From the IMG/VR virus record IMGVR_UViG_3300045988_092011: 16,052 nt of DNA, one strand, 5' to 3'. Within the stretch, counting starts at the first letter, position 1. Each line of letters starts with the position of its first letter. The notes under the pieces were generated by a model. It worked only from the letters and a program-made list of their open reading frames with translations, did not search any database and was not told the origin of the DNA. Source of the DNA: a virus. Its lineage: Duplodnaviria > Heunggongvirae > Uroviricota > Caudoviricetes. Made by a program: the position numbers and the translations under genes. Below, in pieces: positions 1-16,052 of the stretch.

Positions 1-19
1 AAGAAGGATTTTTGGCCTC

Positions 20-1102: not shown

Positions 1103-1287
1103 GTCTAGCTCCCTTAACAAGTGTTAAAAATTGAAGCGGATAGCATACCGCATAGATCATGAAAAATGCCATCATGTGCATGGATTTGCATGCGTCAGAA
1201 GTCGCTTTTATTGTTAGTTATCACTAGCGATGGTGTGCTCTTGGAGTGTTCATGCAACTGCATTAAAAACGCCCCATGAAGCGGGCG

Positions 1288-1306
1288 GGCGAGGCGGGGA
1301 AAGCAC
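1288..1306 (+). other. cos: cos site: P2-type 19-nt cohesive-end sequence GGCGAGGCGGGGAAAGCAC
   Basis: The exact 19-mer I recall as the P2 cohesive end is present in a GC-rich non-coding region, at the expected position beyond the 3' end of Q. Confidence 0.7.
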
Positions 1307-1448
1307 TGCGCGCTGGCGGTGGTGCTGATTTTATTTTTTCAGCGTCTCAGCGCGTCGTAATGGCGTTTAGATTGTGCGCCGAGGCGTTGGTGTGTCTGCG
1401 GGCTGTTTTGTGCGGTGGTGAGCGTGTGAGGGCATGATGACGGGGTGT

Positions 1449-1470
1449 AAAAAAGCCGCCCGCAGGCGGC
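1449..1470 (-). terminator. Rho-independent terminator of the P-Q late operon
   Basis: On the minus strand: 6-bp GC stem (1455-1460 with 1465-1470), 4-nt loop, then TTTTTT (plus-strand A-tract 1449-1454). The hairpin starts 5 nt after the Q stop codon. Confidence 0.6.
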
Positions 1471-1475
1471 GATGT

Positions 1476-2510
1476 TCAGCCGTTGTCAGTGTCCAGTGAG
1501 TAGTTTTTAAAGCGGATGACCTCCTGGCCGAGCCAGCCGTTTATTTCCCGAATCCTGTCCTGTAACGGGATTAGCTCATTGCGGACAAAGACCTTTGCCA
1601 CTTTCTCAATATCGCCCAGTGACCCGACGTTCTCCGGCTTGCCGCCCATCAACTGAAAGGGGATGCGGTGCGCGTCCAGCAGGTCAGCGGCGCTGGCTTT
1701 TTTGATATTAAAAAAATCGTCCTTCGTCGCCACTTCACTGAGGGGGATAATTTTAATGCCGTCGGCTTTCCCCTGCGGGGCATAGAGAAACAGATTTTTA
1801 AAGTTATTGCGGCCTTTCGACTTAACCATGTTTTCGCGAAGCATTTCGATATCGTTGCGATCCTGCACGGCATCGGTGACGTACATGATGTATCCGGCAT
1901 GTGCGCCGTTTTCGTAATACTTGCGGCGGAACAGCGTGGCCGACTCATTCAGCCAGGCAGAGTTAAGGGCGCTGAGATATTCCGGCAGGCCGTACAGCTC
2001 CTGATTGATATCCGGCTCCAGCAGGTGAAACACGGAGCCGGGCGCGAAGGCTGTCGGCTCGTTGAAGGACGGCACCCACCAGTAAACATCCTCCTCCATG
2101 CCACGGCGGGTATATTTTGCCGGCGAGGTTTCCAGCCTGATAACCTTACCGGTGGTGCTGTAACGCTTTTCCAGAAACGCATTACCGAACACCAGAAAAT
2201 CCAGCACAAAGCGGCTGAAATCCTGTTGAGAAAGCCACGGATGCGGGATAAATGTCGAGGCCAGAATATTGCGTTTAACGTAAATCGGTGAGCTGTGATG
2301 CACGGCAGCACGCAGGCTTTTCGCCAGACCGGTAAAGCTGACCGGTGGCTCATACCATCTGCCGTTACTGATGCATTCGACGTAATCCAGAATGTCACGG
2401 CGGTCGAGTACCGGCACCGGCTCACCAAAGGTGAATGCCTCCATTTTCGGGGCGCTGGCGGTCATTTTTTTTGCCGCAGGTTGCGGTGTTTTCCCTTTTT
2501 TCTTGCTCAT
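1476..2510 (-). CDS. Q: portal protein (P2 gpQ-like)
   Basis: 344 aa, N-terminus MSKKKGKTPQPAAKK; length and position match P2 Q. Its ATG overlaps the stop of P (ATGA). Confidence 0.93.
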   Translation of the reverse strand: MSKKKGKTPQPAAKKMTASAPKMEAFTFGEPVPVLDRRDILDYVECISNGRWYEPPVSFTGLAKSLRAAVHHSSPIYVKRNILASTFIPHPWLSQQDFSRFVLDFLVFGNAFLEKRYSTTGKVIRLETSPAKYTRRGMEEDVYWWVPSFNEPTAFAPGSVFHLLEPDINQELYGLPEYLSALNSAWLNESATLFRRKYYENGAHAGYIMYVTDAVQDRNDIEMLRENMVKSKGRNNFKNLFLYAPQGKADGIKIIPLSEVATKDDFFNIKKASAADLLDAHRIPFQLMGGKPENVGSLGDIEKVAKVFVRNELIPLQDRIREINGWLGQEVIRFKNYSLDTDNG

Positions 2511-4282
2511 CAGTAAAACTCCAGAATGGTGGATGTCAGCGGGGTGCTGATACCGGCGGTGAGTGGCTCATTTAACAGGGCGTGCATGGTCGCCCAGGCG
2601 AGGTCGGCGTGGCTGGCTTCCTCGCTGCGGCTGGCCTCATAGGTGGCACTGCGTCCGCTGCTGGTCATGGTCTTGCGGATAGCCATAAACGAGCTGGTGA
2701 TGTCGGTGGCGCTGACGTCATATTCCAGACAGCCACGGCGGATAACGTCTTTTGCCTTGAGCACCATTGCGGTTTTCATTTCCGGTGTGTAGCGGATATC
2801 GCGCGCGGCGGGATAGAACGAGCGCACGAGCTGGAACACGCCGACACCGAGGCCGGTGGCATCAATACCGATGTATTCGACGTTGTATTTTTCGGTGAGT
2901 TTGCGGATGGATTCCGCCTGAGTGGCAAAGTCCATGCCTTTCCACTGGTGACGCTCAAGTATTCTGAATTTGCCACCGGCCACCACCGGCGGTGCCAGCA
3001 CCACGCATCCGGCGCTGTCGCCACGGTGTGACGGGTCGTAACCAATCCATACCGGGCGGGAGCCGAACGGATTCGCGGCAAACGGCGCATAGTCTTCCCA
3101 TTCTTCCAGCGTGTCGACCATGCAGCGTTGCAGCTCCTCGAACGGGAATACCGACGCCTTGTCGTCAACAAATTCACACATGAACAGGTTTTTAAAATCG
3201 TCGGCGCTGTTTTCGCGTTTGAGCTGTTCAATGTCGAACAGCGTGCAGCCGCCTTTCAGGGCGTCCTCAATGGTGACAATCTGCCGCCACTGACCGTCCG
3301 CACAGAGAAGCCCACCGGAAAGGGCGTTATGACTGACGTCGATTTCCACGCGTTCGGCGGCGCTGGCGCGTCCCCGGTTGAACAGTTCACCGGACCAGAA
3401 CGGGTAGGCGTCGTGCGCCAGCGTGGACGGGGTGGAGAAATAGGTCGAGCGCAGGTGACTCTGTGAGGCCATACCTGATGCCACCTTACGCAGTACCTGA
3501 AAATTCGGGATCCAGAAAATCTCGTCGACGTACAGGTCGCCGTTATGGCTCTGCGCGGTGTTGGAGTTGGTGCCGAGAAAAATCAGTTTTGCGCCGTTAT
3601 TGCCCAGGACAATCGGGTCACCGGTCAGGTCAACGTCAACCAGCCGGGCAAAGGCGATGATGTATTCGCGGAACACATACGCCTGCGTTTTACTGGCCGA
3701 CAGAAAAATCTGGTTATGGCCGGTTTTCAGGGCGCGCAGCAGCGCTTCGCGGGAAAAATAAAACGTTGCGCCAATCTGGCGGGATTTCAGGATATCGCGG
3801 ATGCGGTGCTCAAGCCCGGCGCGATACCAGTGCAACTGATAGTCGAAAGACTGCTCAAAGAAAATCTGCTCCAGCTTTTCGATGGCCTCGTCACTGAAAA
3901 AATTCTTTTTCGGTTTGCGCCGCCCGTCTTTGTTGCGGTTAGCAACGTTCGGATTAAGGTCTGCCTCGTTGCCGGTCTGACTGTAACGGTTGACCCGTGC
4001 CAGTCGTTCAATCTGGCGTCCGAGCAGGTCAATTTCCTTGAAGTCACCGCCGGTTTTCTGCGGTTTGATGATGAGCTGGGTCAGTCGCGCTTCCAGACTC
4101 ATTTCGACACGGCTGATGGGGGCAACGCTGTCCCAGCCGTCGCGCTGTTTCCAGCTCTGCACCGTCGGGCGTTTCATCTGCAACATGGCGGCAATCTGCG
4201 GCACGGAAAACCCCTGCCAGTACAGCAGCGCCGCCTGACGACGCGGGTCGTGTAAAAGAGTGGTGTCTGTGGTGATGGTCAT
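2510..4282 (-). CDS. P: terminase large subunit / ATPase (P2 gpP-like)
   Basis: ORF track gives 600 aa; trimmed to the second ATG (MTITTDTTLLHDP...), preceded by GAGG, giving 590 aa, which matches my recollection of P2 P. Divergent from O. Confidence 0.9.
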   Translation of the reverse strand: MTITTDTTLLHDPRRQAALLYWQGFSVPQIAAMLQMKRPTVQSWKQRDGWDSVAPISRVEMSLEARLTQLIIKPQKTGGDFKEIDLLGRQIERLARVNRYSQTGNEADLNPNVANRNKDGRRKPKKNFFSDEAIEKLEQIFFEQSFDYQLHWYRAGLEHRIRDILKSRQIGATFYFSREALLRALKTGHNQIFLSASKTQAYVFREYIIAFARLVDVDLTGDPIVLGNNGAKLIFLGTNSNTAQSHNGDLYVDEIFWIPNFQVLRKVASGMASQSHLRSTYFSTPSTLAHDAYPFWSGELFNRGRASAAERVEIDVSHNALSGGLLCADGQWRQIVTIEDALKGGCTLFDIEQLKRENSADDFKNLFMCEFVDDKASVFPFEELQRCMVDTLEEWEDYAPFAANPFGSRPVWIGYDPSHRGDSAGCVVLAPPVVAGGKFRILERHQWKGMDFATQAESIRKLTEKYNVEYIGIDATGLGVGVFQLVRSFYPAARDIRYTPEMKTAMVLKAKDVIRRGCLEYDVSATDITSSFMAIRKTMTSSGRSATYEASRSEEASHADLAWATMHALLNEPLTAGISTPLTSTILEFY

Positions 4283-4455
4283 GAATACCTCGCCGTGATG
4301 AATACACGGCAAGGCTACTGAGTCGTGCCCTGCGATTCGCTAAGGTGCTGTTGTGTCAGTGATAAGCCATCCGGGACTGATGGCGGAGGATGCGCATCGT
4401 CGGGAAACTGATGCCGACATGTGACTCCTCTAATCACTATTCAGGACTCCTGACA
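4283..4455. promoter_or_regulatory. divergent P/O intergenic region, expected site of the late promoters for the P-Q and O-onward operons
   Basis: A 173-bp non-coding gap between divergently oriented P and O. In P2 this region carries Ogr-activated late promoters, but I found no exact TGT-N12-ACA element, so the assignment is positional only. Confidence 0.4.
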
Positions 4456-5310
4456 ATGGCAAAAAAAGCATCAAAATTCTTTCGTATCGGCGTTGAGGGT
4501 GACACCTGTGACGGGCGTGTCATCAGTGCGCAGGATATTCAGGAAATGGCCGAAACCTTTGACCCGCGAGTCTATGGTTGCCGCATTAACCTGGAACATC
4601 TGCGCGGCATCCTGCCTGACGGTATTTTTAAGCGTTATGGCGATGTGGTCGAACTGAAGGCCGAAAAGATTGACGATGATTCGGCGCTGAAAGGCAAATG
4701 GGCGCTGTTTGCGAAAATCACCCCGACCGATGACCTTATCGCGATGAACAAGGCCGCGCAGAAGGTCTATACCTCAATGGAAATTCAGCCGAACTTTGCC
4801 AATACCGGCAAATGTTATCTGGTGGGTCTGGCCGTCACCGATGACCCGGCAAGCCTCGGCACGGAATACCTGGAATTCTGCCGCACGGCAAAACACAACC
4901 CCCTGAACCGCTTCAAATTAAGCCCTGAAAACCTGATTTCAGTGGCAACGCCTGTTGAGCTGGAATTTGAAGACCTGCCTGAAACCGTGTTCACCGCCCT
5001 GACCGAAAAGGTGAAATCCATTTTTGGCCGCAAACAGGCCAGCGATGACGCCCGTCTGAATGACGTGCATGAAGCGGTGACCGCTGTCGCTGAACATGTG
5101 CAGGAAAAACTGAGCGCCACTGAGCAGCGCCTCGCTGAGATGGAAACTGCCTTTTCCGCTCTTAAGCAGGAGGTGACTGACAGGGCGGATGAAACCAGCC
5201 AGGCATTCACCCGCCTGAAAAACAGTCTCGACAGCACCGAAAGCCTGACCCAGCAGCGCCGCAGCAAGGCCACCGGCGGTGGCGGTGACGCCCTGATGAC
5301 GAACTGCTGA
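4456..5310 (+). CDS. O: capsid scaffolding protein (P2 gpO-like)
   Basis: ORF trimmed to ATG at 4456 (MAKKASKFFRIGVEGDTCDG...), giving 284 aa; AGGA lies 9 nt upstream. Matches P2 O in length and sequence. Confidence 0.9.
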   Translation: MAKKASKFFRIGVEGDTCDGRVISAQDIQEMAETFDPRVYGCRINLEHLRGILPDGIFKRYGDVVELKAEKIDDDSALKGKWALFAKITPTDDLIAMNKAAQKVYTSMEIQPNFANTGKCYLVGLAVTDDPASLGTEYLEFCRTAKHNPLNRFKLSPENLISVATPVELEFEDLPETVFTALTEKVKSIFGRKQASDDARLNDVHEAVTAVAEHVQEKLSATEQRLAEMETAFSALKQEVTDRADETSQAFTRLKNSLDSTESLTQQRRSKATGGGGDALMTNC

Positions 5311-5368
5311 CCGGCGTCAGCCAGTCCGGGCAAACCTTCACGATTAACCCTTAATTTCAGGAAAAACT

Positions 5369-6442
5369 ATGCGCCAGGAAACCCGCTTTAAATTTAATGC
5401 CTACCTGTCCCGTGTTGCCGAACTGAACGGCATCGACGCCGGTGATGTGTCGAAAAAATTCACCGTTGAACCGTCGGTCACCCAGACCCTGATGAACACC
5501 ATGCAGGAGTCCTCTGATTTTCTGACCCGCATCAACATTGTGCCGGTCAGCGAAATGAAAGGGGAAAAAATTGGTATTGGTGTCACCGGCTCCATCGCCA
5601 GCACCACCGACACCGCCGGTGGCACCGAGCGTCAGCCGAAGGACTTCTCGAAGCTGGCGTCAAACAAGTACGAATGCGACCAGATTAACTTCGATTTTTA
5701 TATCCGCTACAAAACGCTTGACCTGTGGGCGCGTTATCAGGATTTCCAGCTCCGTGTCCGTAACGCCATTATCAAACGCCAGTCCCTTGATTTAATCATG
5801 GCCGGTTTTAACGGCGTGAGGCGTGCCGAAACCTCTGACCGCAGCAGTAATCCGATGCTACAGGATGTGGCGGTCGGCTGGCTGCAGAAATACCGCAATG
5901 AAGCACCGGCGCGCGTGATGAGCAAGGTCACTGACGAGGAAGGGCACACCACCTCTGAGGTTATCCGCGTGGGTAAGGGCGGTGATTATGCCAGCCTTGA
6001 TGCACTGGTGATGGATGCGACCAACAACCTGATTGAGCCGTGGTATCAGGAAGACCCTGACCTTGTGGTGATTGTGGGGCGTCAGCTACTGGCGGACAAG
6101 TATTTCCCCATCGTTAACAAAGAGCAGGACAACAGCGAAATGCTGGCCGCTGACGTCATCATCAGCCAGAAACGCATCGGTAACCTGCCGGCGGTACGCG
6201 TCCCGTACTTCCCGGCGGATGCGATGCTCATCACGAAGCTGGAAAACCTGTCCATCTACTACATGGATGACAGCCATCGCCGCGTGATTGTGGAAAACCC
6301 GAAACTCGACCGCGTGGAGAACTACGAGTCAATGAACATTGATTACGTGGTGGAAGACTACGCCGCCGGTTGTCTGGTGGAAAAAATTAAGGTCGGTGAT
6401 TTCTCCACACCGGCTAAAGCGACCGCAGAGCCGGGAGCGTAA
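5369..6442 (+). CDS. N: major capsid protein (P2 gpN-like)
   Basis: 357 aa; AGGA 6 nt upstream of the ATG; position after O and length match P2 N. Confidence 0.93.
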   Translation: MRQETRFKFNAYLSRVAELNGIDAGDVSKKFTVEPSVTQTLMNTMQESSDFLTRINIVPVSEMKGEKIGIGVTGSIASTTDTAGGTERQPKDFSKLASNKYECDQINFDFYIRYKTLDLWARYQDFQLRVRNAIIKRQSLDLIMAGFNGVRRAETSDRSSNPMLQDVAVGWLQKYRNEAPARVMSKVTDEEGHTTSEVIRVGKGGDYASLDALVMDATNNLIEPWYQEDPDLVVIVGRQLLADKYFPIVNKEQDNSEMLAADVIISQKRIGNLPAVRVPYFPADAMLITKLENLSIYYMDDSHRRVIVENPKLDRVENYESMNIDYVVEDYAAGCLVEKIKVGDFSTPAKATAEPGA

Positions 6443-6445
6443 CTG

Positions 6446-7189
6446 ATGACGAGTCCCGCACAGCGCCACATGATGCGGGTCTCGGCAGCGATGGCCGCGC
6501 AGCGGGAAGCCGCCCCGCTGCGACATGCAACTGTCTATGAGCAGATGCTGGTTAAGCTCGCCGCAGACCAGCGCACACTGAAAGCAATTTATTCAAAAGA
6601 GCTGAAGGCCGCGAAAAAACGCGAACTGCTGCCGTTCTGGTTGCCGTGGGTGAACGGCGTGCTGGAGCAGGGCAAAGGTGCACAGGATGACATTCTGATG
6701 ACGGTCATGCTGTGGCGTCTGGATACCGGCGATATTGCCGGTGCGCTGGAGATTGCCCGTTATGCCCTGAAGTACGGTCTGACCATGCCGGGGAAACACC
6801 GCCGCACCCCGCCGTACATGTTCACCGAGGAGGTGGCGCTTGCGGCCATGCGCGCTCACGCTGCCGGTGAGTCTGTGGATACCCGCCTGCTGACGGACAC
6901 CCTCGAACTGACCGCCACGGCTGACATGCCTGATGAAGTGCGCGCAAAGCTGCACAAAATCACCGGTCTGTTTCTGCGTGACGGTGGTGATGCCGCCGGT
7001 GCGCTGGCACACCTGCAACGTGCGACACAGCTCGACTGTCAGGCAGGCGTCAAAAAAGAGATTGAACGACTGGAGCGGGAGCTGAAACCGAAGCCGGAGC
7101 CGCAGCCAAAAGCGGCCACCCGCGCCCCGCGTAAGACCCGGAGCGTGACACCGGCAAAACGTGGACGCCCGAAAAAGAAAGCCAGTTAA
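6446..7189 (+). CDS. M: terminase small (endonuclease) subunit (P2 gpM-like)
   Basis: 247 aa, starts MTSPAQRHMMRV, GGGAG 8 nt upstream; begins 4 nt after the N stop. Confidence 0.9.
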   Translation: MTSPAQRHMMRVSAAMAAQREAAPLRHATVYEQMLVKLAADQRTLKAIYSKELKAAKKRELLPFWLPWVNGVLEQGKGAQDDILMTVMLWRLDTGDIAGALEIARYALKYGLTMPGKHRRTPPYMFTEEVALAAMRAHAAGESVDTRLLTDTLELTATADMPDEVRAKLHKITGLFLRDGGDAAGALAHLQRATQLDCQAGVKKEIERLERELKPKPEPQPKAATRAPRKTRSVTPAKRGRPKKKAS

Positions 7190-7288
7190 CAACCGAATGC
7201 GCCCCGCGCCAGGGCGGCACGCCGGTCAGTGAGGGTGAATCACCTGACACTGCACCGGCGTCCACCGCCCGACTTTTCAGAGGTAGTC

Positions 7289-7798
7289 ATGATGACGCTG
7301 ATTATTCCGCGAAAGGAGGCTCCCGTGTCCGGTGAGGGTACGGTGGTCATCCCGCAACCGGCAGGCGACGAGCCGGTGATTAAAAACACGTTCTTTTTTC
7401 CCGATATCGACCCGAAGCGCGTCCGGGAACGTATGCGCCTTGAGCAGACCGTCGCCCCCGCCCGTCTGCGTGAGGCCATCAAGTCAGGCATGGCTGAAAC
7501 AAATGCGGAGCTGTACGAGTACCGCGAACAGAAAATTGCCGCCGGTTTTACGCGTCTGGCGGACGTTCCGGCGGACGACATCGACGGTGAAAGCATCAAA
7601 GTTTTTTACTACGAGCGCGCTGTGTGTGCGATGGCGACCGCGTCGCTTTATGAGCGTTACCGCGGCGTGGATGCCAGTGCCAAGGGCGACAAGAAGGCCG
7701 ACAGCATTGACAGCACCATTGATGAGCTGTGGCGGGATATGCGCTGGGCGGTGGCGCGCATCCAGGACAAGCCGCGCTGCATCGTGAGTCAAATCTGA
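7289..7798 (+). CDS. L: head completion/stabilisation protein (P2 gpL-like)
   Basis: ORF track starts at GTG 7229; trimmed to ATG 7289 (MMTLIIPRKEAP...), with GAGG 8 nt upstream, giving 169 aa as in P2 L. Confidence 0.88.
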   Translation: MMTLIIPRKEAPVSGEGTVVIPQPAGDEPVIKNTFFFPDIDPKRVRERMRLEQTVAPARLREAIKSGMAETNAELYEYREQKIAAGFTRLADVPADDIDGESIKVFYYERAVCAMATASLYERYRGVDASAKGDKKADSIDSTIDELWRDMRWAVARIQDKPRCIVSQI

Positions 7799-8001
7799 TG
7801 AAGACCTTTGCGCTACAGGGCGACACGCTCGACGCCATTTGTGTCCGGTATTACGGGCGCACTGAGGGCGTGGTTGAGACCGTGCTCGCCGCAAATCCGG
7901 GACTGGCTGAACTGGGTGCGGTGCTGCCACACGGCACCGCCGTCGAACTGCCCGACGTTCAGACCGCGCCCGTGGCTGAAACTGTCAATCTGTGGGAGTA
8001 A
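7798..8001 (+). CDS. X: tail protein X (P2 gpX-like)
   Basis: 67-aa product MKTFALQGDTLDAICVRYYGRTEG...; its ATG overlaps the L stop (TGATG). Falls below the ORF-track length cutoff as a stand-alone ORF, so it was recovered from inside the 7729..8001 ORF. Confidence 0.85.
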   Translation: MKTFALQGDTLDAICVRYYGRTEGVVETVLAANPGLAELGAVLPHGTAVELPDVQTAPVAETVNLWE

Positions 8002-8004
8002 CGC

Positions 8005-8286
8005 ATGACAGCAGAAGAAAAAAGCGTCCTGTCGCTTTTCATGATTGGGGTGCTGATTGTTGTCGGCAAGGTGCTTGCCGGTGGTGAACCCATCACCCCG
8101 CGTCTGTTTATCGGGCGCATGTTGCTTGGTGGTTTTGTCTCGATGGTTGCCGGTGTTGTTCTGGTGCAGTTTCCTGACCTGTCACTGCCTGCGGTGTGCG
8201 GCATTGGCTCCATGCTGGGTATCGCCGGTTATCAGGTGATTGAGATTGCCATTCAGCGCCGCTTTAAGGGCAGGGGGAAACCGTAA
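8005..8286 (+). CDS. Y: holin (P2 gpY-like)
   Basis: 93 aa with hydrophobic membrane-spanning segments and a charged C-terminus; GGGAG upstream; first gene of the lysis cassette. Confidence 0.9.
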   Translation: MTAEEKSVLSLFMIGVLIVVGKVLAGGEPITPRLFIGRMLLGGFVSMVAGVVLVQFPDLSLPAVCGIGSMLGIAGYQVIEIAIQRRFKGRGKP

Positions 8287-8783
8287 TGCCGGTAATTAAC
8301 ACACATCAGAATATCGCCGCCTTTCTCGACATGCTGGCCGTGTCCGAAGGGACGGCGAATCATCCGCTGACGAAAAACCGGGGCTATGACGTGATAGTCA
8401 CCGGACTGGACGGGAAGCCGGAAATTTTCACCGACTACAGTGACCACCCGTTCGCGTATGGCCGACCGGCGAAGGTGTTTAACCGTCGCGGTGAAAAATC
8501 CACGGCCTCCGGTCGCTATCAGCAGCTTTACCTGTTCTGGCCGCATTACCGCAAACAGCTTGCCCTGCCGGATTTCAGTCCGTTGTCACAGGACAGACTC
8601 GCCATTCAGTTGATCCGCGAACGCGGTGCACTGGATGACATCCGGGAGGGACGCATTGAGCGCGCCATTTCACGCTGTCGCAATATCTGGGCGTCCCTGC
8701 CGGGTGCCGGTTACGGTCAGCGTGAGCATTCACTGGAAAAACTGGTCACCGTCTGGCGTACCGCTGGCGGCGTACCGGCTTAA
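8286..8783 (+). CDS. K: endolysin / lysozyme (P2 gpK-like)
   Basis: 165 aa; its ATG overlaps the Y stop (TAATG); position and length match P2 K. Confidence 0.92.
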   Translation: MPVINTHQNIAAFLDMLAVSEGTANHPLTKNRGYDVIVTGLDGKPEIFTDYSDHPFAYGRPAKVFNRRGEKSTASGRYQQLYLFWPHYRKQLALPDFSPLSQDRLAIQLIRERGALDDIREGRIERAISRCRNIWASLPGAGYGQREHSLEKLVTVWRTAGGVPA

Positions 8784-8797
8784 ACGGAGTAAACACC

Positions 8798-9223
8798 ATG
8801 AAGAAATTATCCCTTTCACTGATGCTGAACGTGTCGCTGGCGCTGATGCTGGCACTGTCCCTGATTTACCCGCAGAGCGTGGCCGTCAGTTTTGTCGCTG
8901 CCTGGGCGATTCTGGTGACGGTTATCTGTGTGGTTGCCGGTGGTGTCGGCGTGTATGCCACTGAGTATGTGCTGGAACGCTACGGGCGGGAGCTGCCGCC
9001 GGAATCGCTGGCCGTGAAGATTGTCACGTCGCTGTTTTTGCAGCCGGTGCCGTGGCGCAGACGGGCGGCGGCTCTGGTAGTGGTGGTGGCGACGTTTATC
9101 TCGCTGGTCGCTGCCGGGTGGATTTTTACCGCGCTGATTTATCTTGTGGTGTCGCTGTTTTTCCGGCTGATACGTAAAGCCTGTCGTCAGCGTCTTGAGG
9201 GGCGGGAACTATGTCAAAGCTGA
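8798..9223 (+). CDS. lysA: lysis regulatory membrane protein LysA
   Basis: 141 aa, strongly hydrophobic with several predicted transmembrane segments; ACGGAG 8 nt upstream; matches P2 lysA in position and length. Confidence 0.8.
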   Translation: MKKLSLSLMLNVSLALMLALSLIYPQSVAVSFVAAWAILVTVICVVAGGVGVYATEYVLERYGRELPPESLAVKIVTSLFLQPVPWRRRAAALVVVVATFISLVAAGWIFTALIYLVVSLFFRLIRKACRQRLEGRELCQS

Positions 9224-9636
9224 TGATTGTGCTGGTCGTGTTGCTATCGCTGGCGGTGGCCGGTCTGTTTCTGGCGAAGCATGAAAACGCCAGGCTGCGC
9301 GTCTCGCTGGACAGGGCGAACAATGTCGCCAGCGGGCAGCAGACGACCATCACCATGCTGAAAAATCAGCTTCATGTTGCGCTCACCAGGGCAGACAAAA
9401 ACGAGCTGGCGCAGGTGGCACTGCGTCAGGAACTGGAGAACGCCGCGAAGCGTGAAGCACAGCGCGAGAAAACCATCACGAGGTTACTTAATGAAAACGA
9501 AGATTTTCGCCGCTGGTACGGTGCTGACCTGCCTGATGCTGTGCGCCGGTTGCACCAGCGCCCCGCCTGCACCGACGCCAGTGATTGTCGCCAACGCCTG
9601 CCCGAAAGTGAGTCTTTGCCCGATGCCGGGCAGTGA
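9211..9636 (+). CDS. lysB: LysB, Rz-like inner-membrane spanin
   Basis: 141 aa, N-terminal membrane anchor (MSKLMIVLVVLLSLAVAGLF) followed by a charged helical periplasmic region; overlaps the lysA 3' end. Confidence 0.8.
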   Translation: MSKLMIVLVVLLSLAVAGLFLAKHENARLRVSLDRANNVASGQQTTITMLKNQLHVALTRADKNELAQVALRQELENAAKREAQREKTITRLLNENEDFRRWYGADLPDAVRRLHQRPACTDASDCRQRLPESESLPDAGQ

Positions 9637-9781
9637 CCCGGAGACGAACGGCGATTTAAGTGCCGATATCCGGCAGCTTGAGAACGCGCTGGCACGCTGT
9701 GCCAGCCAGGTAAAAATGATTAAACACTGTCAGGACGAAAACGATGCTCAAACCCGACAGCCTGCGCAGGGCGCTGACTGA
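9491..9781 (+). CDS. lysC: LysC, Rz1-like outer-membrane lipoprotein spanin, embedded in the +1 frame of lysB
   Basis: 96-aa product MKTKIFAAGTVLTCLMLCAGCTSAPPAPTP with a signal peptide, lipobox-like Cys and a Pro-rich region; GAGG 8 nt upstream; starts inside lysB and runs past its stop into R. Confidence 0.75.
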   Translation: MKTKIFAAGTVLTCLMLCAGCTSAPPAPTPVIVANACPKVSLCPMPGSDPETNGDLSADIRQLENALARCASQVKMIKHCQDENDAQTRQPAQGAD

Positions 9782-10211
9782 TGCCGTCACGGTGCTGAAA
9801 ACCAGTCCAGAGATGCTTCGGATATTCGTGGATAACGGGAGTATTGCCTCCACGCTGGCGACGTCGCTGTCGTTCGAAAAGCGTTACACGCTCAATGTGA
9901 TTGTGACCGACTTTACCGGTGATTTTGACCTGCTCATCGTGCCGGTGCTGGCGTGGCTGCGGGAAAATCAGCCCGACATCATGACCACCGACGAAGGTCA
10001 GAAAAAAGGTTTCACGTTTTATGCAGACATCAACAATGACAGCAGCTTTGATATCAGCATCAGCCTGATGCTGACCGAGCGCACGCTGGTCAGTGAGGTT
10101 GACGGCGCGCTGCATGTGAAGAATATCCCGGAACCTTCGCCGCCGGAGCCGGTTACCCGCCCGATGGAGCTGTATATCAATGGCGAACTGGTGAGCAAGT
10201 GGGATGAATGA
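9744..10211 (+). CDS. R: tail completion protein (P2 gpR-like)
   Basis: 155 aa; position and length match P2 R; overlaps the S start. Confidence 0.88.
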   Translation: MLKPDSLRRALTDAVTVLKTSPEMLRIFVDNGSIASTLATSLSFEKRYTLNVIVTDFTGDFDLLIVPVLAWLRENQPDIMTTDEGQKKGFTFYADINNDSSFDISISLMLTERTLVSEVDGALHVKNIPEPSPPEPVTRPMELYINGELVSKWDE

Positions 10212-10656
10212 GTTTAAGCGTTTTGAAGACCGGCTGACCGGACTTATTGAATCGCTGTCACCGTCAGGGCGTCGGCGACTGAGCGCCGAACTGGCGAAAC
10301 GTCTGCGGCAGAGTCAGCAGCGCCGGGTGATGGCACAGAAAGCCCCGGACGGCACACCCTACGCACCACGCCAGCAGCAGAGCGCCAGAAAAAAGACCGG
10401 TCGCGTTAAGCGAAAAATGTTTGCGAAACTTATCACCAGTCGTTTTTTGCATATCCGCGCCAGCCCTGAACAGGCATCAATGGAGTTTTACGGCGGGAAG
10501 TCACCGAAAATAGCCAGTGTGCATCAGTTCGGTCTGTCGGAAGAAACCCGGAAAGACGGTAAGAAAATTGATTATCCGGCGCGTCCTCTGCTCGGCTTTA
10601 CCGGTGAGGATGTGCAGATGATTGAAGAGATTATCCTGGCTCACCTCGACCGTTAG
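10204..10656 (+). CDS. S: tail completion protein (P2 gpS-like)
   Basis: 150 aa; position and length match P2 S. Confidence 0.88.
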   Translation: MNEFKRFEDRLTGLIESLSPSGRRRLSAELAKRLRQSQQRRVMAQKAPDGTPYAPRQQQSARKKTGRVKRKMFAKLITSRFLHIRASPEQASMEFYGGKSPKIASVHQFGLSEETRKDGKKIDYPARPLLGFTGEDVQMIEEIILAHLDR

Positions 10657-10722
10657 TTGTGCCATTCCCGACACCTCATCGTTACATTGCCGCCGGTATG
10701 ACCCGGCGGCATCCTTCCCGTT
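10657..10722 (+). promoter_or_regulatory. S-V intergenic region with a GC-rich hairpin; expected location of the late promoter for the V operon
   Basis: 66-bp gap containing a perfect 8-bp inverted repeat GCCGCCGG / CCGGCGGC (10689-10696 and 10703-10710, 6-nt loop) with no T-tract after it. P2 has a late promoter ahead of V, but no exact Ogr-site consensus was found. Confidence 0.35.
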
Positions 10723-11358
10723 ATGAACACTCTCGCAAATATCCAGGAACTCGCGCGCGCACTGCGCAACATGATCCGCACCGGCCTTGTCGTCGAAACC
10801 AACCTTAAAGCCGGTCGCTGCCGTGTGCAGACCGGCGGCATGTGCACCGACTGGCTTCAGTGGCTGACCTGTCGTGCCGGGCGTTCGCGCACATGGTGGG
10901 CACCTTCCGTGGGGGAGCAGGTGCTGATTCTGGCCGTGGGCGGTGAACTTGACACGGCGTTTGTTCTGCCGGGGATTTATTCCGGCGATAACCCCGCGCC
11001 GTCTGCGTCGGCGGATGCCCTGCATATCCGTTTCCCTGACGGGGCGGTGATTGAGTATGAACCCGAAACCAGTGCACTCACGGTAAGCGGAATTAAAACG
11101 GCCAGCGTGACGGCTTCTGATTCTGTTACTGCCACGGTGCCGGTGGTCATGGTGAAAGCATCAACCCGCATCACCCTGGACACACCGGAGGTGGTCTGCA
11201 CCAACAGGCTGATTACCGGCACGCTGGAAGTGCGGAAGGGCGGGACGATGCGCGGCAACATTGAACACACCGGCGGTGAACTCTCATCAAACGGTAAGGT
11301 ACTGCATACCCATAAACACCCCGGCGACAGCGGCGGCACAACCGGGAGCCCTCTATGA
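10723..11358 (+). CDS. V: baseplate spike / assembly protein (P2 gpV-like)
   Basis: 211 aa; position and length match P2 V. Confidence 0.9.
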   Translation: MNTLANIQELARALRNMIRTGLVVETNLKAGRCRVQTGGMCTDWLQWLTCRAGRSRTWWAPSVGEQVLILAVGGELDTAFVLPGIYSGDNPAPSASADALHIRFPDGAVIEYEPETSALTVSGIKTASVTASDSVTATVPVVMVKASTRITLDTPEVVCTNRLITGTLEVRKGGTMRGNIEHTGGELSSNGKVLHTHKHPGDSGGTTGSPL

Positions 11359-11702
11359 CAGCGCGTTATCTCGGAATGAATCGCAGTGATGGCCTGACTG
11401 TCACTGACCTTGAGCATATCAGCCAGAGTATCGGCGATATCCTGCGCACACCGGTCGGCTCACGGGTGATGCGTCGTGATTACGGCTCGTTGCTGGCGTC
11501 AATGATTGACCAGCCGCAGACCCCGGCGCTTGAGTTGCAGATTAAGGTCGCCTGTTACATGGCCGTGCTGAAATGGGAACCCCGCGTCACCCTGTCATCC
11601 GTCACCACGGCGCGCAGTTTTGACGGGCGAATGACGGTCACGTTAACCGGTCAGCACAACGACACCGGCCAGCCACTTTCGTTAACCATCCCTGTGAGTT
11701 GA
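11355..11702 (+). CDS. W: baseplate wedge protein (P2 gpW-like)
   Basis: 115 aa; its ATG overlaps the V stop (ATGA). Confidence 0.9.
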   Translation: MTARYLGMNRSDGLTVTDLEHISQSIGDILRTPVGSRVMRRDYGSLLASMIDQPQTPALELQIKVACYMAVLKWEPRVTLSSVTTARSFDGRMTVTLTGQHNDTGQPLSLTIPVS

Positions 11703-11706
11703 AACC

Positions 11707-12615
11707 ATGCCGATTATCGACCTGAACCAGCTACCCGCACCGGATGTGGTCGAGGAGCTGGACTTTGAAACCATTCTTGCCGAACGCAAGGCGACACTGA
11801 TTTCCCTTTACCCGGAAGACCAGCAGGAGGCGGTCGCCCGTACCCTGACGCTGGAATCTGAGCCTCTCGTCAAACTGCTGGAGGAAAATGCTTATCGTGA
11901 GCTTATCTGGCGTCAGCGTGTGAATGAGGCTGCACGGGCGGTGATGCTGGCCTGTGCCGCCGGTAATGACCTTGATGTGATTGGTGCCAATTACAACACC
12001 ACACGCCTGATTATCACCCCGGCAGATGATTCGACCCTCCCGCCGACACCGGCCGTGATGGAATCTGACACCGATTATCGTCTGCGTATTCAGCAGGCGT
12101 TTGAAGGTTTAAGCGTCGCCGGGTCGGTGGGGGCCTATCAGTATCATGGTCGAAGTGCCGACGGGCGTGTCGCAGATATCTCTGTCACCAGTCCTTCTCC
12201 GGCCTGCGTCACCATCTCTGTGCTGTCACGTGAAAATAACGGTGTGGCATCCGAAGACCTGCTGGCGGTGGTGCGCAACGCCCTTAATGGTGAGGACGTC
12301 AGACCGGTGGCCGACCGCGTGACCGTGCAGTCTGCCGCCATCGTTGAATACCAGATAAACGCCACGCTTTACCTTTACCCTGGCCCCGAAAGCGAACCCA
12401 TCCGCGCTGCTGCCGTGAAAAAACTGGAAGCGTACATCACGGCACAACACCGGCTGGGGCGTGACATCCGTCTGTCTGCCATTTATGCCGCTTTGCATGT
12501 GGAAGGCGTGCAGCGTGTCGAGCTGGCCGCACCACTGGCCGACATCGTGCTCAACAATACGCAGGCGTCTTTCTGTACCGAATACCGCGTCGTGACCGGA
12601 GGCTCGGATGAGTGA
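11707..12615 (+). CDS. J: baseplate protein (P2 gpJ-like)
   Basis: 302 aa; position and length match P2 J. Confidence 0.9.
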   Translation: MPIIDLNQLPAPDVVEELDFETILAERKATLISLYPEDQQEAVARTLTLESEPLVKLLEENAYRELIWRQRVNEAARAVMLACAAGNDLDVIGANYNTTRLIITPADDSTLPPTPAVMESDTDYRLRIQQAFEGLSVAGSVGAYQYHGRSADGRVADISVTSPSPACVTISVLSRENNGVASEDLLAVVRNALNGEDVRPVADRVTVQSAAIVEYQINATLYLYPGPESEPIRAAAVKKLEAYITAQHRLGRDIRLSAIYAALHVEGVQRVELAAPLADIVLNNTQASFCTEYRVVTGGSDE

Positions 12616-13138
12616 TTCGCGACTGCTGCCGACCGGCTCATCACCGCTTGAAGTTGCCGCCGCAAAAGCCTGTGCGGAAATTGAAAAGACACCGGTCAGG
12701 ATTCGTGAGCTGTGGAACCCGGACACCTGCCCGGCAAATCTGCTGCCGTGGCTGGCGTGGGCGTTTTCGGTCGACAGGTGGGATGAAAAGTGGCCGGAAG
12801 CGACAAAACGCGCCGTTATCCGCGATGCCTATTTCATCCACTGTCATAAAGGCACTATAGGTGCAATCCGGCGTGTGGTGGAGCCGCTGGGCTATCTCAT
12901 CAACGTGACGGAGTGGTGGGAAACCAGTGACCCGCCGGGCACCTTCCGGCTTGATATTGGTGTACTGGAAAGCGGCATCACAGAGGCAATGTATCAGGAA
13001 ATGGAACGGCTGATTGCTGATGCCAAACCTGCAAGCCGCCACCTTATTGGCCTGAACATTACCCGGGACATTCCCGGCTACTTGTTCGCCGGTGGTGTGG
13101 CTTATGACGGCGATGTAATTACGGTTTACCCAGGATAA
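12608..13138 (+). CDS. I: baseplate protein (P2 gpI-like)
   Basis: 176 aa; GGAGG upstream; overlaps the J 3' end by 8 nt. Confidence 0.9.
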   Translation: MSDSRLLPTGSSPLEVAAAKACAEIEKTPVRIRELWNPDTCPANLLPWLAWAFSVDRWDEKWPEATKRAVIRDAYFIHCHKGTIGAIRRVVEPLGYLINVTEWWETSDPPGTFRLDIGVLESGITEAMYQEMERLIADAKPASRHLIGLNITRDIPGYLFAGGVAYDGDVITVYPG

Positions 13139-13148
13139 GTGAGGAATA

Positions 13149-15398
13149 ATGAGCACAAAATTCAGAACCGTTATCACCACTGCCGGTGCAGCAAAGCTGG
13201 CAGCGGCAACCGCACCGGGAGGGCGGAAGGTCAACATTACCACGATGGCCGTCGGGGATGGCGGTGGTAAATTGCCTGTCCCGGATGCCGGACAGACCGG
13301 GCTTATCCATGAAGTCTGGCGACATGCGCTGAACAAAATCAGCCAGGACAAACGAAACAGTAATTATATTATCGCAGAGCTGGTTATTCCGCCGGAGGTG
13401 GGCGGTTTCTGGATGCGTGAGCTTGGCCTGTACGATGATGCGGGAACGTTAATTGCTGTGGCGAACATGGCCGAAAGTTATAAGCCTGCCCTTGCCGAAG
13501 GCTCAGGGCGTTCGCAGACCTGCCGCATGGTCATCATCGTCAGCAGTGTGGCCTCAGTGGAGCTGACCATTGACACCACAACGGTGATGGCGACGCAGGA
13601 TTACGTTGATGACAAAATTGCAGAGCACGAACAGTCACGACGTCACCCGGACGCCTCGCTGACCGCAAAAGGTTTTACTCAGTTAAGCAGTGCGACCAAC
13701 AGCACGTCTGAAACACTGGCCGCAACGCCGAAAGCGGTAAAGGCCGCTTATGATCTTGCTAACGGGAAATATACCGCGCAGGATGCCACCACAGCGCGAA
13801 AAGGCCTTGTCCAGCTCAGTAGCGCCACCAATAGCGATTCTGAAACGCTCGCCGCAACGCCGAAAGCGGTAAAGGCAGCATATGACCTTGCTAACGGGAA
13901 ATACACTGCACAGGACGCCACCACAACGCGAAAAGGCCTTGTTCAGCTCAGTAGCGCCACCAACAGCGATTCTGAAACGCTTGCGGCAACGCCAAAGGCG
14001 GTTAAGACAGCATATGACCTTGCTAACGGGAAATACACTGCACAGGATGCCACCACGGCGCGAAAAGGTCTTGTCCAGCTCAGTAGCGCCACCAACAGTG
14101 ATTCTGAAACGCAGGCTGCAACGCCAAAGGCGGTGAAGTCTGCCTATGACAATGCTGAAAAACGTCTTCAGAAAGATCAGAACGGTGCGGATATCCCTGA
14201 TAAAGAACGCTTCCTGAGTAACATTAATGTTTACAGCAAAGGTGAAGTGGATAAGAAAAAGGGAATGCGAAAGTATTCGTTTGCAGCCCCTGCAAATGTC
14301 GTTGCCGGGAAGTGGTACCCCGTTATCTTTCGCCGTGCTGCCAGCTTTTCAGGAGAAATGGCATCCCGCGTTGTTATTTCCACTGGTTGTTATAACGGCG
14401 ATTATGTAATGAATAACTGCGAGTTTAATGGCATGGTTATGCCCGGAGGCTGGACTGATCGTGGTTCATATGCGGCAGGTTATTTCTGGACGTATCAGAC
14501 TAATGAGCGTTCAATCCATTCCATTGTTACAAGCCTGAAAGATGATGATGTATGTAGTGTTTTTTATGTTGAAGCCAGAGCTTTCCCTGTACAAATTCTT
14601 GCAGAGGAAGGGCTAACGGTTATTGTTCCGACAGAGGATTATGTCGTCGGTCAAACGACATATAAGTGGGGGGCAACTAATCCCGCTACAGAAAGCACGA
14701 ACGCACAGGCTATTCTGGATTTTAAAAATGGGCGCGGTTATTACTGCTCACATCCATTTATTTCCAGCCTTTCAGGAAATGCTGCAACAGCAACGAAGTT
14801 AGCGAATGCAAGAAATATTAATGGTGTCAGATTTGATGGTTCTGCCGATATAAATATTAATACACTGGTATCCAGAAACCGTGTTACTGCATTAGGTGGG
14901 AGCTCAAAGGGTACACCAGGTATTCAGATGTATGAGGCATACAACAATGGCTACCCAACAGCCTATGGTAATGTGCTTCATCTCACTGGCGTAACTGCAG
15001 TAGGAGAGGGTGAGTTACTTATTGGCTGGAGTGGAACCAGCGGTGCTCATGCTCCGGCATATATTCGCTCCCGACGAGATACCACAGATGCTAACTGGTC
15101 TGGATGGGCGCAACTATATACAACTGCTCATAAACCCTCAGCGGGAGATGTTGGTGCATACACCAAAGCTGAGTCAGATTCACGTTATGTGAGAGACATG
15201 CGGCTGGGCGGTGCATCTACATATAAACCAGCAAATAATGGTATTACATGGACGCATCAGGCTCCGTCAGGTTGCGTATATACCGGCATTATTGTTCAGG
15301 ATACCGGCTCAAACTCTGCCGATAACATTGGTGGCGTATATTACAGACCGGTGCAGAAATACATTAACGGGACATGGTATAACGTGGCGCAGGTATAA
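13149..15398 (+). CDS. H: tail fibre protein (P2 gpH-like) with an internal tandem repeat array and a divergent AT-rich distal (receptor-binding) region
   Basis: 749 aa; GAGG upstream. N-terminus is P2 H-like, the middle carries 44-aa repeats, and the C-terminal region contains a GNAATATKLANARNINGVRFDGSADI motif that I recall from Mu S / lambda Stf-type side tail fibres. Confidence 0.92.
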   Translation: MSTKFRTVITTAGAAKLAAATAPGGRKVNITTMAVGDGGGKLPVPDAGQTGLIHEVWRHALNKISQDKRNSNYIIAELVIPPEVGGFWMRELGLYDDAGTLIAVANMAESYKPALAEGSGRSQTCRMVIIVSSVASVELTIDTTTVMATQDYVDDKIAEHEQSRRHPDASLTAKGFTQLSSATNSTSETLAATPKAVKAAYDLANGKYTAQDATTARKGLVQLSSATNSDSETLAATPKAVKAAYDLANGKYTAQDATTTRKGLVQLSSATNSDSETLAATPKAVKTAYDLANGKYTAQDATTARKGLVQLSSATNSDSETQAATPKAVKSAYDNAEKRLQKDQNGADIPDKERFLSNINVYSKGEVDKKKGMRKYSFAAPANVVAGKWYPVIFRRAASFSGEMASRVVISTGCYNGDYVMNNCEFNGMVMPGGWTDRGSYAAGYFWTYQTNERSIHSIVTSLKDDDVCSVFYVEARAFPVQILAEEGLTVIVPTEDYVVGQTTYKWGATNPATESTNAQAILDFKNGRGYYCSHPFISSLSGNAATATKLANARNINGVRFDGSADININTLVSRNRVTALGGSSKGTPGIQMYEAYNNGYPTAYGNVLHLTGVTAVGEGELLIGWSGTSGAHAPAYIRSRRDTTDANWSGWAQLYTTAHKPSAGDVGAYTKAESDSRYVRDMRLGGASTYKPANNGITWTHQAPSGCVYTGIIVQDTGSNSADNIGGVYYRPVQKYINGTWYNVAQV
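13668..14150 (+). repeat. in-frame tandem repeat, 132-bp unit (44 aa), about 3.7 copies inside H
   Basis: Copies at 13668-13799, 13800-13931, 13932-14063 and a partial copy 14064 to about 14150. Each encodes KGLVQLSSATNSDSETLAATPKAVKAAYDLANGKYTAQDATTAR with small variations. Copies 2 and 3 differ at about 11 of 132 nt, mostly synonymous. Confidence 0.9.
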
Positions 15399-15401
15399 TT
15401 T

Positions 15402-15929
15402 ATGCAGCATTTAAAAAATATTACGGCGGGTAATCCAAAAACGGTTGAACAATATCAATTGACAAAGGACTTTGATGTTGTCTGGTTTTTTTCAGAAGAT
15501 GGTAAGAACTGGTACGAAGAACAAAAGTATTTTGCTGATGACACGATAAAAATAGCGTACGACAAAGATAATATTATCCGCTATGTGGAAAAGGATGTGA
15601 CAGCTATAAGACCGGATGGATTAAGTGTGGTTGAAGTGGCGGATATTACTGCTAACCGACGGGCGGACATTTCAGGGAACTGGATGTTTAAGGATGGCAA
15701 AGTGATTAAACGCATTTATACGGCAGAGGAATTGCAGCAGCAGGCAGAAAACCGGAAAGCCAGACTTCTTGCAGATGCTGAATCCGTGATTTTGCCGCTG
15801 GAGCGCGCTGTCAGGTTGAACATGGCAACAGAGGAGGAGCGCACACGGCTGGAGGCTTGGGAACGCTACAGCGTTGTGGTCAGTCGTGTGGATCCTGCAA
15901 ATCCTGAATGGCCGGAAATGCCGCAATAA
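15402..15929 (+). CDS. G: tail fibre assembly chaperone (P2 gpG-like, Tfa family)
   Basis: 175 aa immediately downstream of H; AT-rich 5' two-thirds and a more GC-rich 3' third; length matches P2 G. Confidence 0.88.
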
Positions 15930-15964
15930 GTTGTATGAACTCTGGTGTGAGCTTACATATCTAT

Positions 15965-16004
15965 GGCACAGAGTAAAGCCTAATCTGACAGTCCGCTCTG
16001 TGCC
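15965..16004. other. 9-bp inverted repeat (GGCACAGAG ... CTCTGTGCC) with a 22-nt spacer, downstream of G
   Basis: Perfect 9-bp arms at 15965-15973 and 15996-16004; no T-tract follows, so it is not a classic intrinsic terminator. Function unknown. Confidence 0.3.
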
Positions 16005-16052
16005 AGGAGCGGAAGTTGCCAAGAGAACTCTTGCAAAGGTATGATAACGTAG

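Follow-up and report, generated by a model that had tools for sequence, protein, structure and literature searches.

That the distal part of P2 H and the adjoining gene G are exchanged horizontally with P1, Mu and lambda-type fibres has stood in textbooks since 1992. The finding that unrelated phages pass P2 tail-fibre genes to one another is credited to Haggard-Ljungquist et al. 1992 in passages of PMC13100340, PMC3945230 and PMC9594776. The receptor of P2 is LPS, and engineering of chimeric P2 fibres has already been attempted (PMC9594776). For Tfa proteins, a passage of PMC9608196 that cites the TfaMu structure assigns fibre binding to the N-terminal domain and oligomerisation to the C-terminal domain.

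We analysed a stretch of 16,052 nucleotides (the window) from a P2-like (Peduovirus) prophage of E. coli O169:H41 strain 2014EL-1345-2. Gene H lies after J and I in the V operon, the gene order of the window follows that of P2 with 96-98% identity, and the RefSeq annotation of the prophage is concordant. Residues 1-151 of H matched the Pfam family PF12571 Phage_tail_fib (E 1.6e-58; 197 bits, cutoff 23), and the shaft matched PF03406 Phage_fiber_2 in four stretches (E 6.9e-82; Pfam). A Pfam scan of H residues 341-749 at E <= 10 returned only noise. Gene G starts 4 nt past the H stop codon, i.e. directly downstream of the fibre gene, and is followed in the prophage (RefSeq) by a gene for a hypothetical protein and then by the tail sheath gene. 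A promoter and terminator scan of 13900-16052 stayed below shuffle expectation. Feature coordinates are given in Table 1.

Table 1. Features of the H/G region (positions in the window)
Feature	Coordinates	Strand	Basis
Gene H, P2-type tail fibre, 749 aa	13149..15398	+	ORF, Pfam, RefSeq WP_099490883.1 (tail fiber protein)
Tandem array, 3.5 copies x 132 nt (44-aa Phage_fiber_2 shaft repeats)	13695..14150	+	Tandem Repeats Finder, 89% matches
Junction motif 1, EKRLQKDQNGADIPDKERFLSNI, H aa 337-359; left edge of non-P2 DNA	14157..14225	+	Sequence comparison
Module A, H aa 360-542, beta-sandwich domain	14226..14774	+	Fibres of many unrelated phages
Junction motif 2, GNAATATKLANARNINGVRFDGSADI, H aa 543-568, exact match	14775..14852	+	Sequence comparison
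Module B, H aa 548-661, P1-S-like, 340 nt	14792..15131	+	Nucleotide comparison with P22H4 and P1
Junction motif 3, KPSAGDVGAYTKAESDSRYVRDMRLGG, H aa 662-688; right breakpoint of module B and start of tip	15132..15212	+	Sequence comparison
Fibre tip, H aa 677-749, Mu S / P2 H-type C-terminal receptor-binding domain	15177..15398	+	Homology
Gene G, 175 aa, fibre-assembly chaperone	15402..15929	+	ORF, Pfam, PHROG
G N-terminal domain, aa 1-100, 39% GC	15402..15701	+	phrog_24494 (stand-alone 93-aa profile) over aa 1-92
G C-terminal domain, aa 101-175 + stop, 54% GC	15702..15929	+	phrog_3792 over aa 101-175
Return to P2-like sequence; true right edge of non-P2 block	15882..16013	+	60-nt identity windows vs P2

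The H/G region is laterally exchanged host-range DNA composed of at least four modules (A, B, tip and G) and not of one block. Distal H and G very probably form a host-range determinant in which these modules are linked as a chain and exchanged at three motifs. Nucleotide identity to P2 was 96-98% from cos to the repeat array of H (96% within H up to 13874). Beyond the array the sequence was unrelated to P2 or ~75% identical, and close similarity returned for the last 50 nt of G. Since identity of 96-98% switched abruptly to no similarity, vertical divergence does not account for the region. This bore out part of the first-pass annotation, a model's reading of the letters and open reading frames, which had proposed lateral exchange of the receptor-specificity part of H and its chaperone G; these differ from P2, whereas the late module is otherwise 96-98% identical to it, and their relatives come from other phage lineages. 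The breakpoints varied with the relative that was compared and fell at 14139-14197, 14792, 15131-15177 and ~15882. At the left edge, similarity to P2 stopped at ~14138 and similarity to fiAA91-ss at 14197, and similarity to HdSG1 began at 14169. The breakpoints relative to P2, fiAA91-ss, P22H4, P1 and HdSG1 coincided with the three junction motifs. Matching E. coli genomes numbered 1,299, and nearly the whole cassette occurred in 67 genomes at ~98% identity or more.

Motif 1 was common to the H proteins of P22H4 and fiAA91-ss, Mu S and the lambdoid Stf-type fragments P0013 and P0027. Module A had relatives in Nonagvirus, lambdoid, T5-like and rV5-like fibres and occupies a mid-fibre position in six or more unrelated phage groups. 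It belongs to no Pfam family and lacks a convincing homologue among solved structures, and a search of a 5.8-billion-protein set gave 28 matches, mostly E. coli fragments, with a shallow alignment and varied downstream partners. Module A could conceivably be a second, laterally displayed receptor-binding domain giving this fibre class two binding specificities, a reading that we consider unlikely; if it held, replacing module B would adjust the spacing or the specificity between module A and the Mu S-type tip. Motif 2 was shared by P22H4 H and by S and S' of P1 (83% over 41 aa), and Nonagvirus HdSG1 had three copies of it. No copy turned up in Mu S/S', the lambda stf region, fiAA91-ss H or P2 H. 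The first-pass annotation had placed this motif in Mu S, P1 S and lambda Stf, which was correct for P1 alone.

The left breakpoint of the module B swap, 14792, lies inside motif 2. The module B interval was 43% identical to P22H4 and 72% identical to P1 S, while its flanks were 98% and 97% identical to P22H4. The protein stretch from residue 543 was 75-78% identical to SSU5 and Ro157c2YLVW and 58-62% identical to S and S' of P1/P7, and homologues of module B (~78%) were found on P1-size plasmids. No near-identical donor of module B was found among phage records (best 72-78%). Within motif 3, which also occurs in Mu S' (PDB 8ju3), identity to P22H4 resumed, as did identity to fiAA91-ss at 15177. 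The tip was 96% identical to that of fiAA91-ss at the amino acid level, 50% to Mu S, 44% to P1 S and 42% to P2 H, and its PDB matches were the phiTE short tail fibre (9cuy_c, E 2.6e-19) and Mu S (5yvq_A, E 7.6e-12). Homology of the last 73 residues suggests that the tip, like those of P2 and Mu, probably uses the LPS core as its receptor; the phiTE paper is silent on the receptor of the homologous tip.

G was 72% identical to TfaMu (5yvq_B) over its full 175 aa (E 1e-82), and its residues 40-175 corresponded to Pfam PF02413 Caudo_TAP (E 3.9e-34). Mu U and P1 U were related to it over the full length (72-75%). Separate PHROG profiles for residues 1-92 and 101-175 indicated a two-domain build. 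By homology to TfaMu, the N-terminal domain is the predicted fibre-binding domain, and the roles assigned in the cited Tfa work make the C-terminal domain the putative conserved helical oligomerisation/assembly domain. Identity of the N-terminal domain was 0.96-0.99 within a tip class and 0.68-0.72 between classes, and that of the C-terminal domain was 0.92-0.93 and 0.77-0.85, respectively; the N-terminal two-thirds of G followed the tip class more tightly than the C-terminal third. In the G/U/U' subfamily, U' differed most in the C-terminal domain (0.32 identity, versus 0.69 in the N-terminal domain), and the rule that the N-terminal domain carries specificity thus fails in places.

The first-pass annotation had read distal H and the first two-thirds of G as one contiguous low-GC foreign cassette, and import of such a block in a single event from a low-GC donor was weighed against the modular chain. 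The low GC at synonymous sites is unbroken from ~14170 to ~15700, and relative to P2 the region is one uninterrupted non-homologous or diverged stretch. However, each relative gave different breakpoints, and the modules differed in lineage affinity and in frequency; among E. coli records at >=95% identity, module A was found in 74 and module B in 51. Nor was the proposed right edge at 15720, by the GC step in G, an exchange boundary, since identity to P2 in 60-nt windows was 62-82% over 15342-15881 and reached 97% and 93% only from 15882, so that divergence from P2 runs beyond the step. The idea that the 3' third of G is native P2 DNA was rejected, as P2 identity in this part was 73-82% up to that point. 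The GC profile, too, was the same in P2 and in all other carriers of G/U. The mosaic breakpoints largely refute a single import, which we regard as very unlikely.

The AT-rich tract itself was real. GC content was 44.0% in 14170-15720 versus 57.0% in the upstream P2-type late operon (1476-13148), with z = -8.1 relative to 1551-nt windows of 1476-14169 (mean 57.2%, sd 1.6%, minimum 53.4%). As had been claimed, the drop comes right after the shaft repeat array, which ends at 14150 and adjoins it on the upstream side. The values of 40-43% given for distal H held at local minima but not as an average, since the mean over 14170-15398 was 45.6%; those given for G were reproduced, with 35.8% at the 5' end (15360-15599) and 54-56% in the 3' third. 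GC3 fell from 0.646 in the late genes to 0.374 in H residues 341-749 (Fisher p 2e-25) and 0.39 in G residues 1-100 (p 4e-7), and was 0.547 in G residues 101-175 (not significant).

Such AT-richness could be a by-product of the encoded amino acids (beta-rich, Asn/Lys/Tyr/Ile-rich) or of sequence selection, and would then be uninformative on origin. In agreement with this, GC2 of the G N-terminal domain was merely 0.24-0.32, and an island of 52% GC within distal H (14940-15120) was due to Gly/Ala-rich codons, because GC3 there was low (0.28-0.35). The step in G also fell at the domain boundary in 13 of 13 relatives, whatever the flanking GC. On the other hand, GC3 was 0.31-0.44 across modules A, B, tip and the G N-terminal domain, versus 0.646 in the late genes, and a GC3 that is significantly low indicates that the shift is not solely one of amino acid composition. 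The sudden loss of all similarity after stretches of 96-98% identity also speaks against this explanation, which we find scarcely credible.

The compositional profile was not special to this prophage. The fall in GC along the distal fibre was also seen in P2, P22H4, fiAA91-ss, Wphi, L-413C, P1 and Mu. All 13 G/U genes examined, that of P2 included, contained the internal step (0.38-0.41 to 0.52-0.54), which coincided with the boundary between the N- and C-terminal domains, and the fibre-flanking DNA of these phages spans 47% (P1) to 58% GC (P2-like). Module B had 53.9% GC in P1 versus 46.1% in the studied prophage, indicating that composition is not carried along with every module. Low GC is a property of the shared module pool and of the G/U gene family, and not the mark of a single recent import. 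It is conceivable, though unlikely, that the invariant step marks the conserved C-terminal domain as a general landing site for the recombination that exchanges tip and chaperone.

We also considered that the region is a frozen remnant of an invertible segment (the P1 C-segment or Mu G-segment), exchanged by Din-family invertases and not by homologous recombination. Homology to P1 S starts ~100 nt into the C-segment and matches both Sv and Sv', G shares 72-75% identity with U genes of invertible segments, and invertase-driven exchange of stf-type genes is proposed in a passage of PMC3945230, citing Sandmeier 1994. The observed breakpoints, however, lie on coding junction motifs, and we judge such a remnant highly improbable. 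The cix/gix-like core AAACCNNGGTTT with <=2 mismatches gave 6 matches versus 7.7 expected and none in distal H, inverted repeats of >=14 nt were absent from 14100-16052, no Din-family invertase was annotated in the prophage and no second, oppositely oriented S'/U' set was found near G, which refutes a present-day invertible segment.

Under the preferred reading, a chain of modules exchanged at shared motifs, the N-terminus of H and the shaft repeats are P2's own, and the modular chain starts at the end of the repeat array. The junction motifs, present in the fibres of unrelated phages, would serve as crossover points for homologous recombination, and the studied allele is a 9W/P22H4-type H in which a 340-nt internal cassette was exchanged for a P1-S-like one. 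In the virion, the trimeric fibre would attach to the baseplate through the H N-terminus and to the cell-surface receptor through its Mu S-type tip. The N-terminal domain of G may dock on the tip and its C-terminal domain may gather three chains, so that folding would begin at the C-terminus. The studied H/G is an ordinary new allele of a known phenomenon and introduces no new principle. It provides a base-resolved example of P2-like prophages altering host range through short cassettes at three motifs, and not through whole genes, and the design of chimeric P2 fibres could draw on the positions of the motifs and the limits of the modules.

Compared with P2 gpH/gpG, the locus has the same operon position (V W J I H G), 96% nucleotide identity in the H N-terminus and repeats, a G that is likewise 175 aa long and 74% identical, a homologous tip (42% over 73 aa) and an identical GC profile along both genes. 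P2 H, however, is 80 aa shorter, has no detectable similarity to residues ~340-676 of the studied H, has none of motifs 1-3 and neither module A nor module B, and carries a tip of another class. The isolated P2-like phages Escherichia phage 9W and Peduovirus P22H4 share the architecture, with an H of 748 aa, and are 96-98% identical at the nucleotide level over 12600-14791 and from 15132 on (module A 99% and G 96% at the amino acid level); they differ in 14792-15131 (aa 548-661), which is unrelated (43%) and is P1-S-like in the studied H. P1 S shares motif 2 and module B (58% aa, 72-74% nt), Mu S shares the tip (50%; 5YVQ is the Mu S C-terminus with TfaMu), and P1 U and Mu U resemble G over the full length (72-75%), including the internal GC step. 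Unlike the P1 and Mu host-range loci, the studied locus has no invertible segment, cix/gix, invertase or S'/U' pair, and unlike their fibres H has P2's N-terminal baseplate-attachment part. The side tail fibres of Nonagvirus siphoviruses (JenK1, HdSG1) and the lambdoid Stf proteins have other N-termini and other distal ends, e.g. tail-collar and gp53-like domains, but share motif 1, module A and motif 2 with the studied H (61% aa, 77% nt).

The window matched a P2-like prophage in E. coli O169:H41 strain 2014EL-1345-2 (NZ_CP024223.1), in which fieF adjoins the prophage, and identity was 100% across the queried cassette (14170-15929). P2 nt 1-9369 (cos through gene S) aligned to window 1288-10658 at 97.6% identity, with P2 nt 1 (cos) at 1288, and the P2 genes from V to the first third of H aligned to 10723-13874 at 96.3%. 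The colinear match skipped from P2 nt 9369 to 10308, leaving only ~64 nt in the window (10659-10722), where the nonessential orf30 of P2 (P2 nt 9439-10224, minus strand) was missing. Left of the cos site lay an AT-rich stretch (1-1287; 36.8% GC) with a minus-strand ORF (20-1120), which is a DUF262 protein in RefSeq; beyond the window, RefSeq places a MAE_28990/MAE_18760 HEPN-like nuclease and then a DNA cytosine methyltransferase after this gene. Since the position presumably corresponds to the old/tin cargo locus of the P2 map, the stretch may be a candidate anti-phage defence cargo. Some 280 nt past the right end of the window, between the tail-fibre assembly chaperone gene G and the tail sheath gene, lies the gene for a hypothetical protein of 447 aa (WP_000257039.1; L006 18042-19385). 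P2 has fun(Z) at this spot, which varies among sampled relatives (a SMEK-domain protein in 12474III, orf44 in Wphi). A 116-aa TTG-start ORF antisense to the 3' end of G (15672-16022, minus strand) has no RefSeq annotation; nothing supports it and it is probably spurious.

Pfam identified the P2 fibre N-terminal domain and four Phage_fiber_2 repeats in the tail-fibre gene H, and Caudo_TAP in G. Relatives carried varying numbers of the 44-aa Phage_fiber_2 repeat (13695-14150), with apparently fewer stretches in P2 (P2 H aa 1-311 aligned to window H aa 1-318), and H ranged from 642 to 919 aa among sampled P2-like phages.

Coordinates of H, G and the modules and junction motifs (m1-m3) of distal H
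Feature	Window nt	Length or H residues	Sequence
H	13149-15398	749 aa	
G	15402-15929	175 aa	
m1	14157-14225		EKRLQKDQNGADIPDKERFLSNI
Module A		aa 360-542	
m2	14775-14852	aa 543-568	motif of the first-pass annotation (exact)
Module B		aa 548-661	
m3	15132-15212		KPSAGDVGAYTKAESDSRYVRDMRLGG
Tip		aa 677-749	

The first-pass annotation had read 14170-15720 as one AT-rich exchanged block, distal H plus the 5' two-thirds of G. The low-GC interval was real, at 44.0% GC versus 57.0% in the late operon (z = -8.1; lowest upstream 1551-nt window, 53.4%), and its start did directly follow the end of the 132-nt repeat array at 14150. The drop was clearest at third codon positions: GC3 was 0.646 in late genes, 0.374 for H aa 341-749 (p 2e-25), 0.39 for G aa 1-100 (N-domain, G-N) and 0.547 for G aa 101-175 (C-domain, G-C). 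The 40-43% GC proposed for distal H was too low, the mean being 45.6% with a 52% island at 14940-15120; as GC3 within the island was still 0.28-0.35, we ascribe it to Gly/Ala codons. The composition did not set the locus apart from P2. In P2, P22H4, fiAA91-ss, P1 S/U and Mu S/U (U is the counterpart of G), GC fell in the distal fibre, reached a minimum of ~0.35 at the chaperone gene start and was 0.50-0.55 at its 3' end. In each of the 13 G/U genes that we examined, GC was 38-41% in the first 300 nt and 52-54% in the remainder, despite fibre-flanking DNA of 47% GC (P1) to 58% (P2-like phages). The low-GC profile is a family trait, common also to P2 itself, with the caveat that module B has 53.9% GC in P1 versus 46.1% in the window. 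The step within G fell at the border of two PHROG profiles (aa 1-92 and 101-175), also found as separate families, and therefore sits where, in the two-domain build described for TfaMu, a fibre-binding N-domain meets a conserved C-domain for oligomerisation; in Tfa proteins the former binds the fibre C-terminus and the latter drives oligomerisation (PMC9608196). The step is thus a domain boundary and 15720 is not the right exchange boundary in this prophage, since P2 similarity returned from 15344 at only 62-82% and reached 97% only from 15882, where 50 nt remain to the stop codon of G.

We located breakpoints by pairwise blastn of the window against five reference phages. P2 similarity ended within the repeat array (~14138), while that to fiAA91-ss ended at 14197 and restarted at 15177. 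P22H4 and 9W were 96-98% identical outside 14792-15131, an interval with 43% identity to P22H4 versus 72% to P1 S. For P1, Sv and Sv' both aligned to 14773-15121, and the end of S together with U aligned to 15344-15929; the Nonagvirus siphovirus HdSG1 was 77% identical, limited to 14169-14855. The breakpoints coincided with three short conserved peptide motifs, m1-m3. As they differ per reference phage, the host-range block is a mosaic of several modules and not a single contiguous cassette; the earlier interpretation is partly supported, in that the region is laterally exchanged.

Motif m1 was also present in Mu S, fiAA91-ss H and lambdoid Stf-type fragments, and m3 in P22H4 and Mu S' (PDB 8ju3). 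Motif m2, attributed in the annotation to Mu, P1 and lambda fibres, did occur in P1 S/S', and also in P22H4 and HdSG1, but was not found in P2 H, Mu S/S' or the lambda stf region. HdSG1 (L005 3000-3930) carries m2 three times in tandem; its module A and m2 homologue straddles two annotated overlapping CDSs (side tail fibre and 'tail collar domain protein'), and the annotation splits its chaperone, with a putative frameshift, into two ORFs that correspond to G-N and G-C.

Module A was 99% identical to phage 9W, 61% to Nonagvirus JenK1 and 30-41% to fibres of T5-like, rV5-like, lambdoid, Aeromonas T4-like, Vibrio and Campylobacter phages; in protein-database fragments the distal domain that followed it varied, tail collar and gp53-like domains being among those found. 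Relatives of module B were P1/P7 S and S', SSU5, Ro157c2YLVW and jumbo phage Goslar. Over 5,426 complete E. coli genomes, modules A and B gave 74 and 51 records, respectively, at at least 95% identity. Nearly the whole cassette was present at ~98% identity or more in 67 genomes. Diverged copies of module A lay in lambdoid Stf-type genes and on ~100 kb plasmids, those of module B mostly on P1-size plasmids.

The tip was 96% identical to fiAA91-ss, with homologues in the phiTE short tail fibre (9cuy), Mu S (5yvq_A), P2 H and P1 S. G was 96% identical to P22H4 G and, at full length, 72-75% to P2 G, P1 U and Mu U. The sampled P2-like phages fell into two tip classes. Within the window's class, identity was 0.96-0.99 for G-N and 0.92-0.93 for G-C; between classes it was 0.68-0.72 and 0.77-0.85, respectively, and G-N therefore discriminates tip class better than G-C. 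The proposal that the tip travels with the 5' part of G holds in part on this account, but G differs from P2 G along its whole length and G-C has its own breakpoints. In U' the C-domain was replaced (0.32 identity versus 0.69 for the N-domain).

The gene order, the domain content and the mosaic structure were directly observed, as was the homology to Mu S and TfaMu (Mu U) in their solved complex. An invertase-based origin, proposed for stf-type genes (PMC3945230), was not supported by the present locus, in which we looked for cix-like sites, inverted repeats and an invertase and found none. The modules would instead be exchanged through homologous recombination at m1-m3. P2 adsorbs via LPS using gpH and requires gpG for assembly (PMC9594776); the receptor of the tip is probably an LPS-core structure. 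Horizontal swapping of P2 tail-fibre genes with unrelated phages is described in Haggard-Ljungquist 1992 (as cited in PMC13100340, PMC3945230 and PMC9594776), and the locus is a new allele of this well-known kind.
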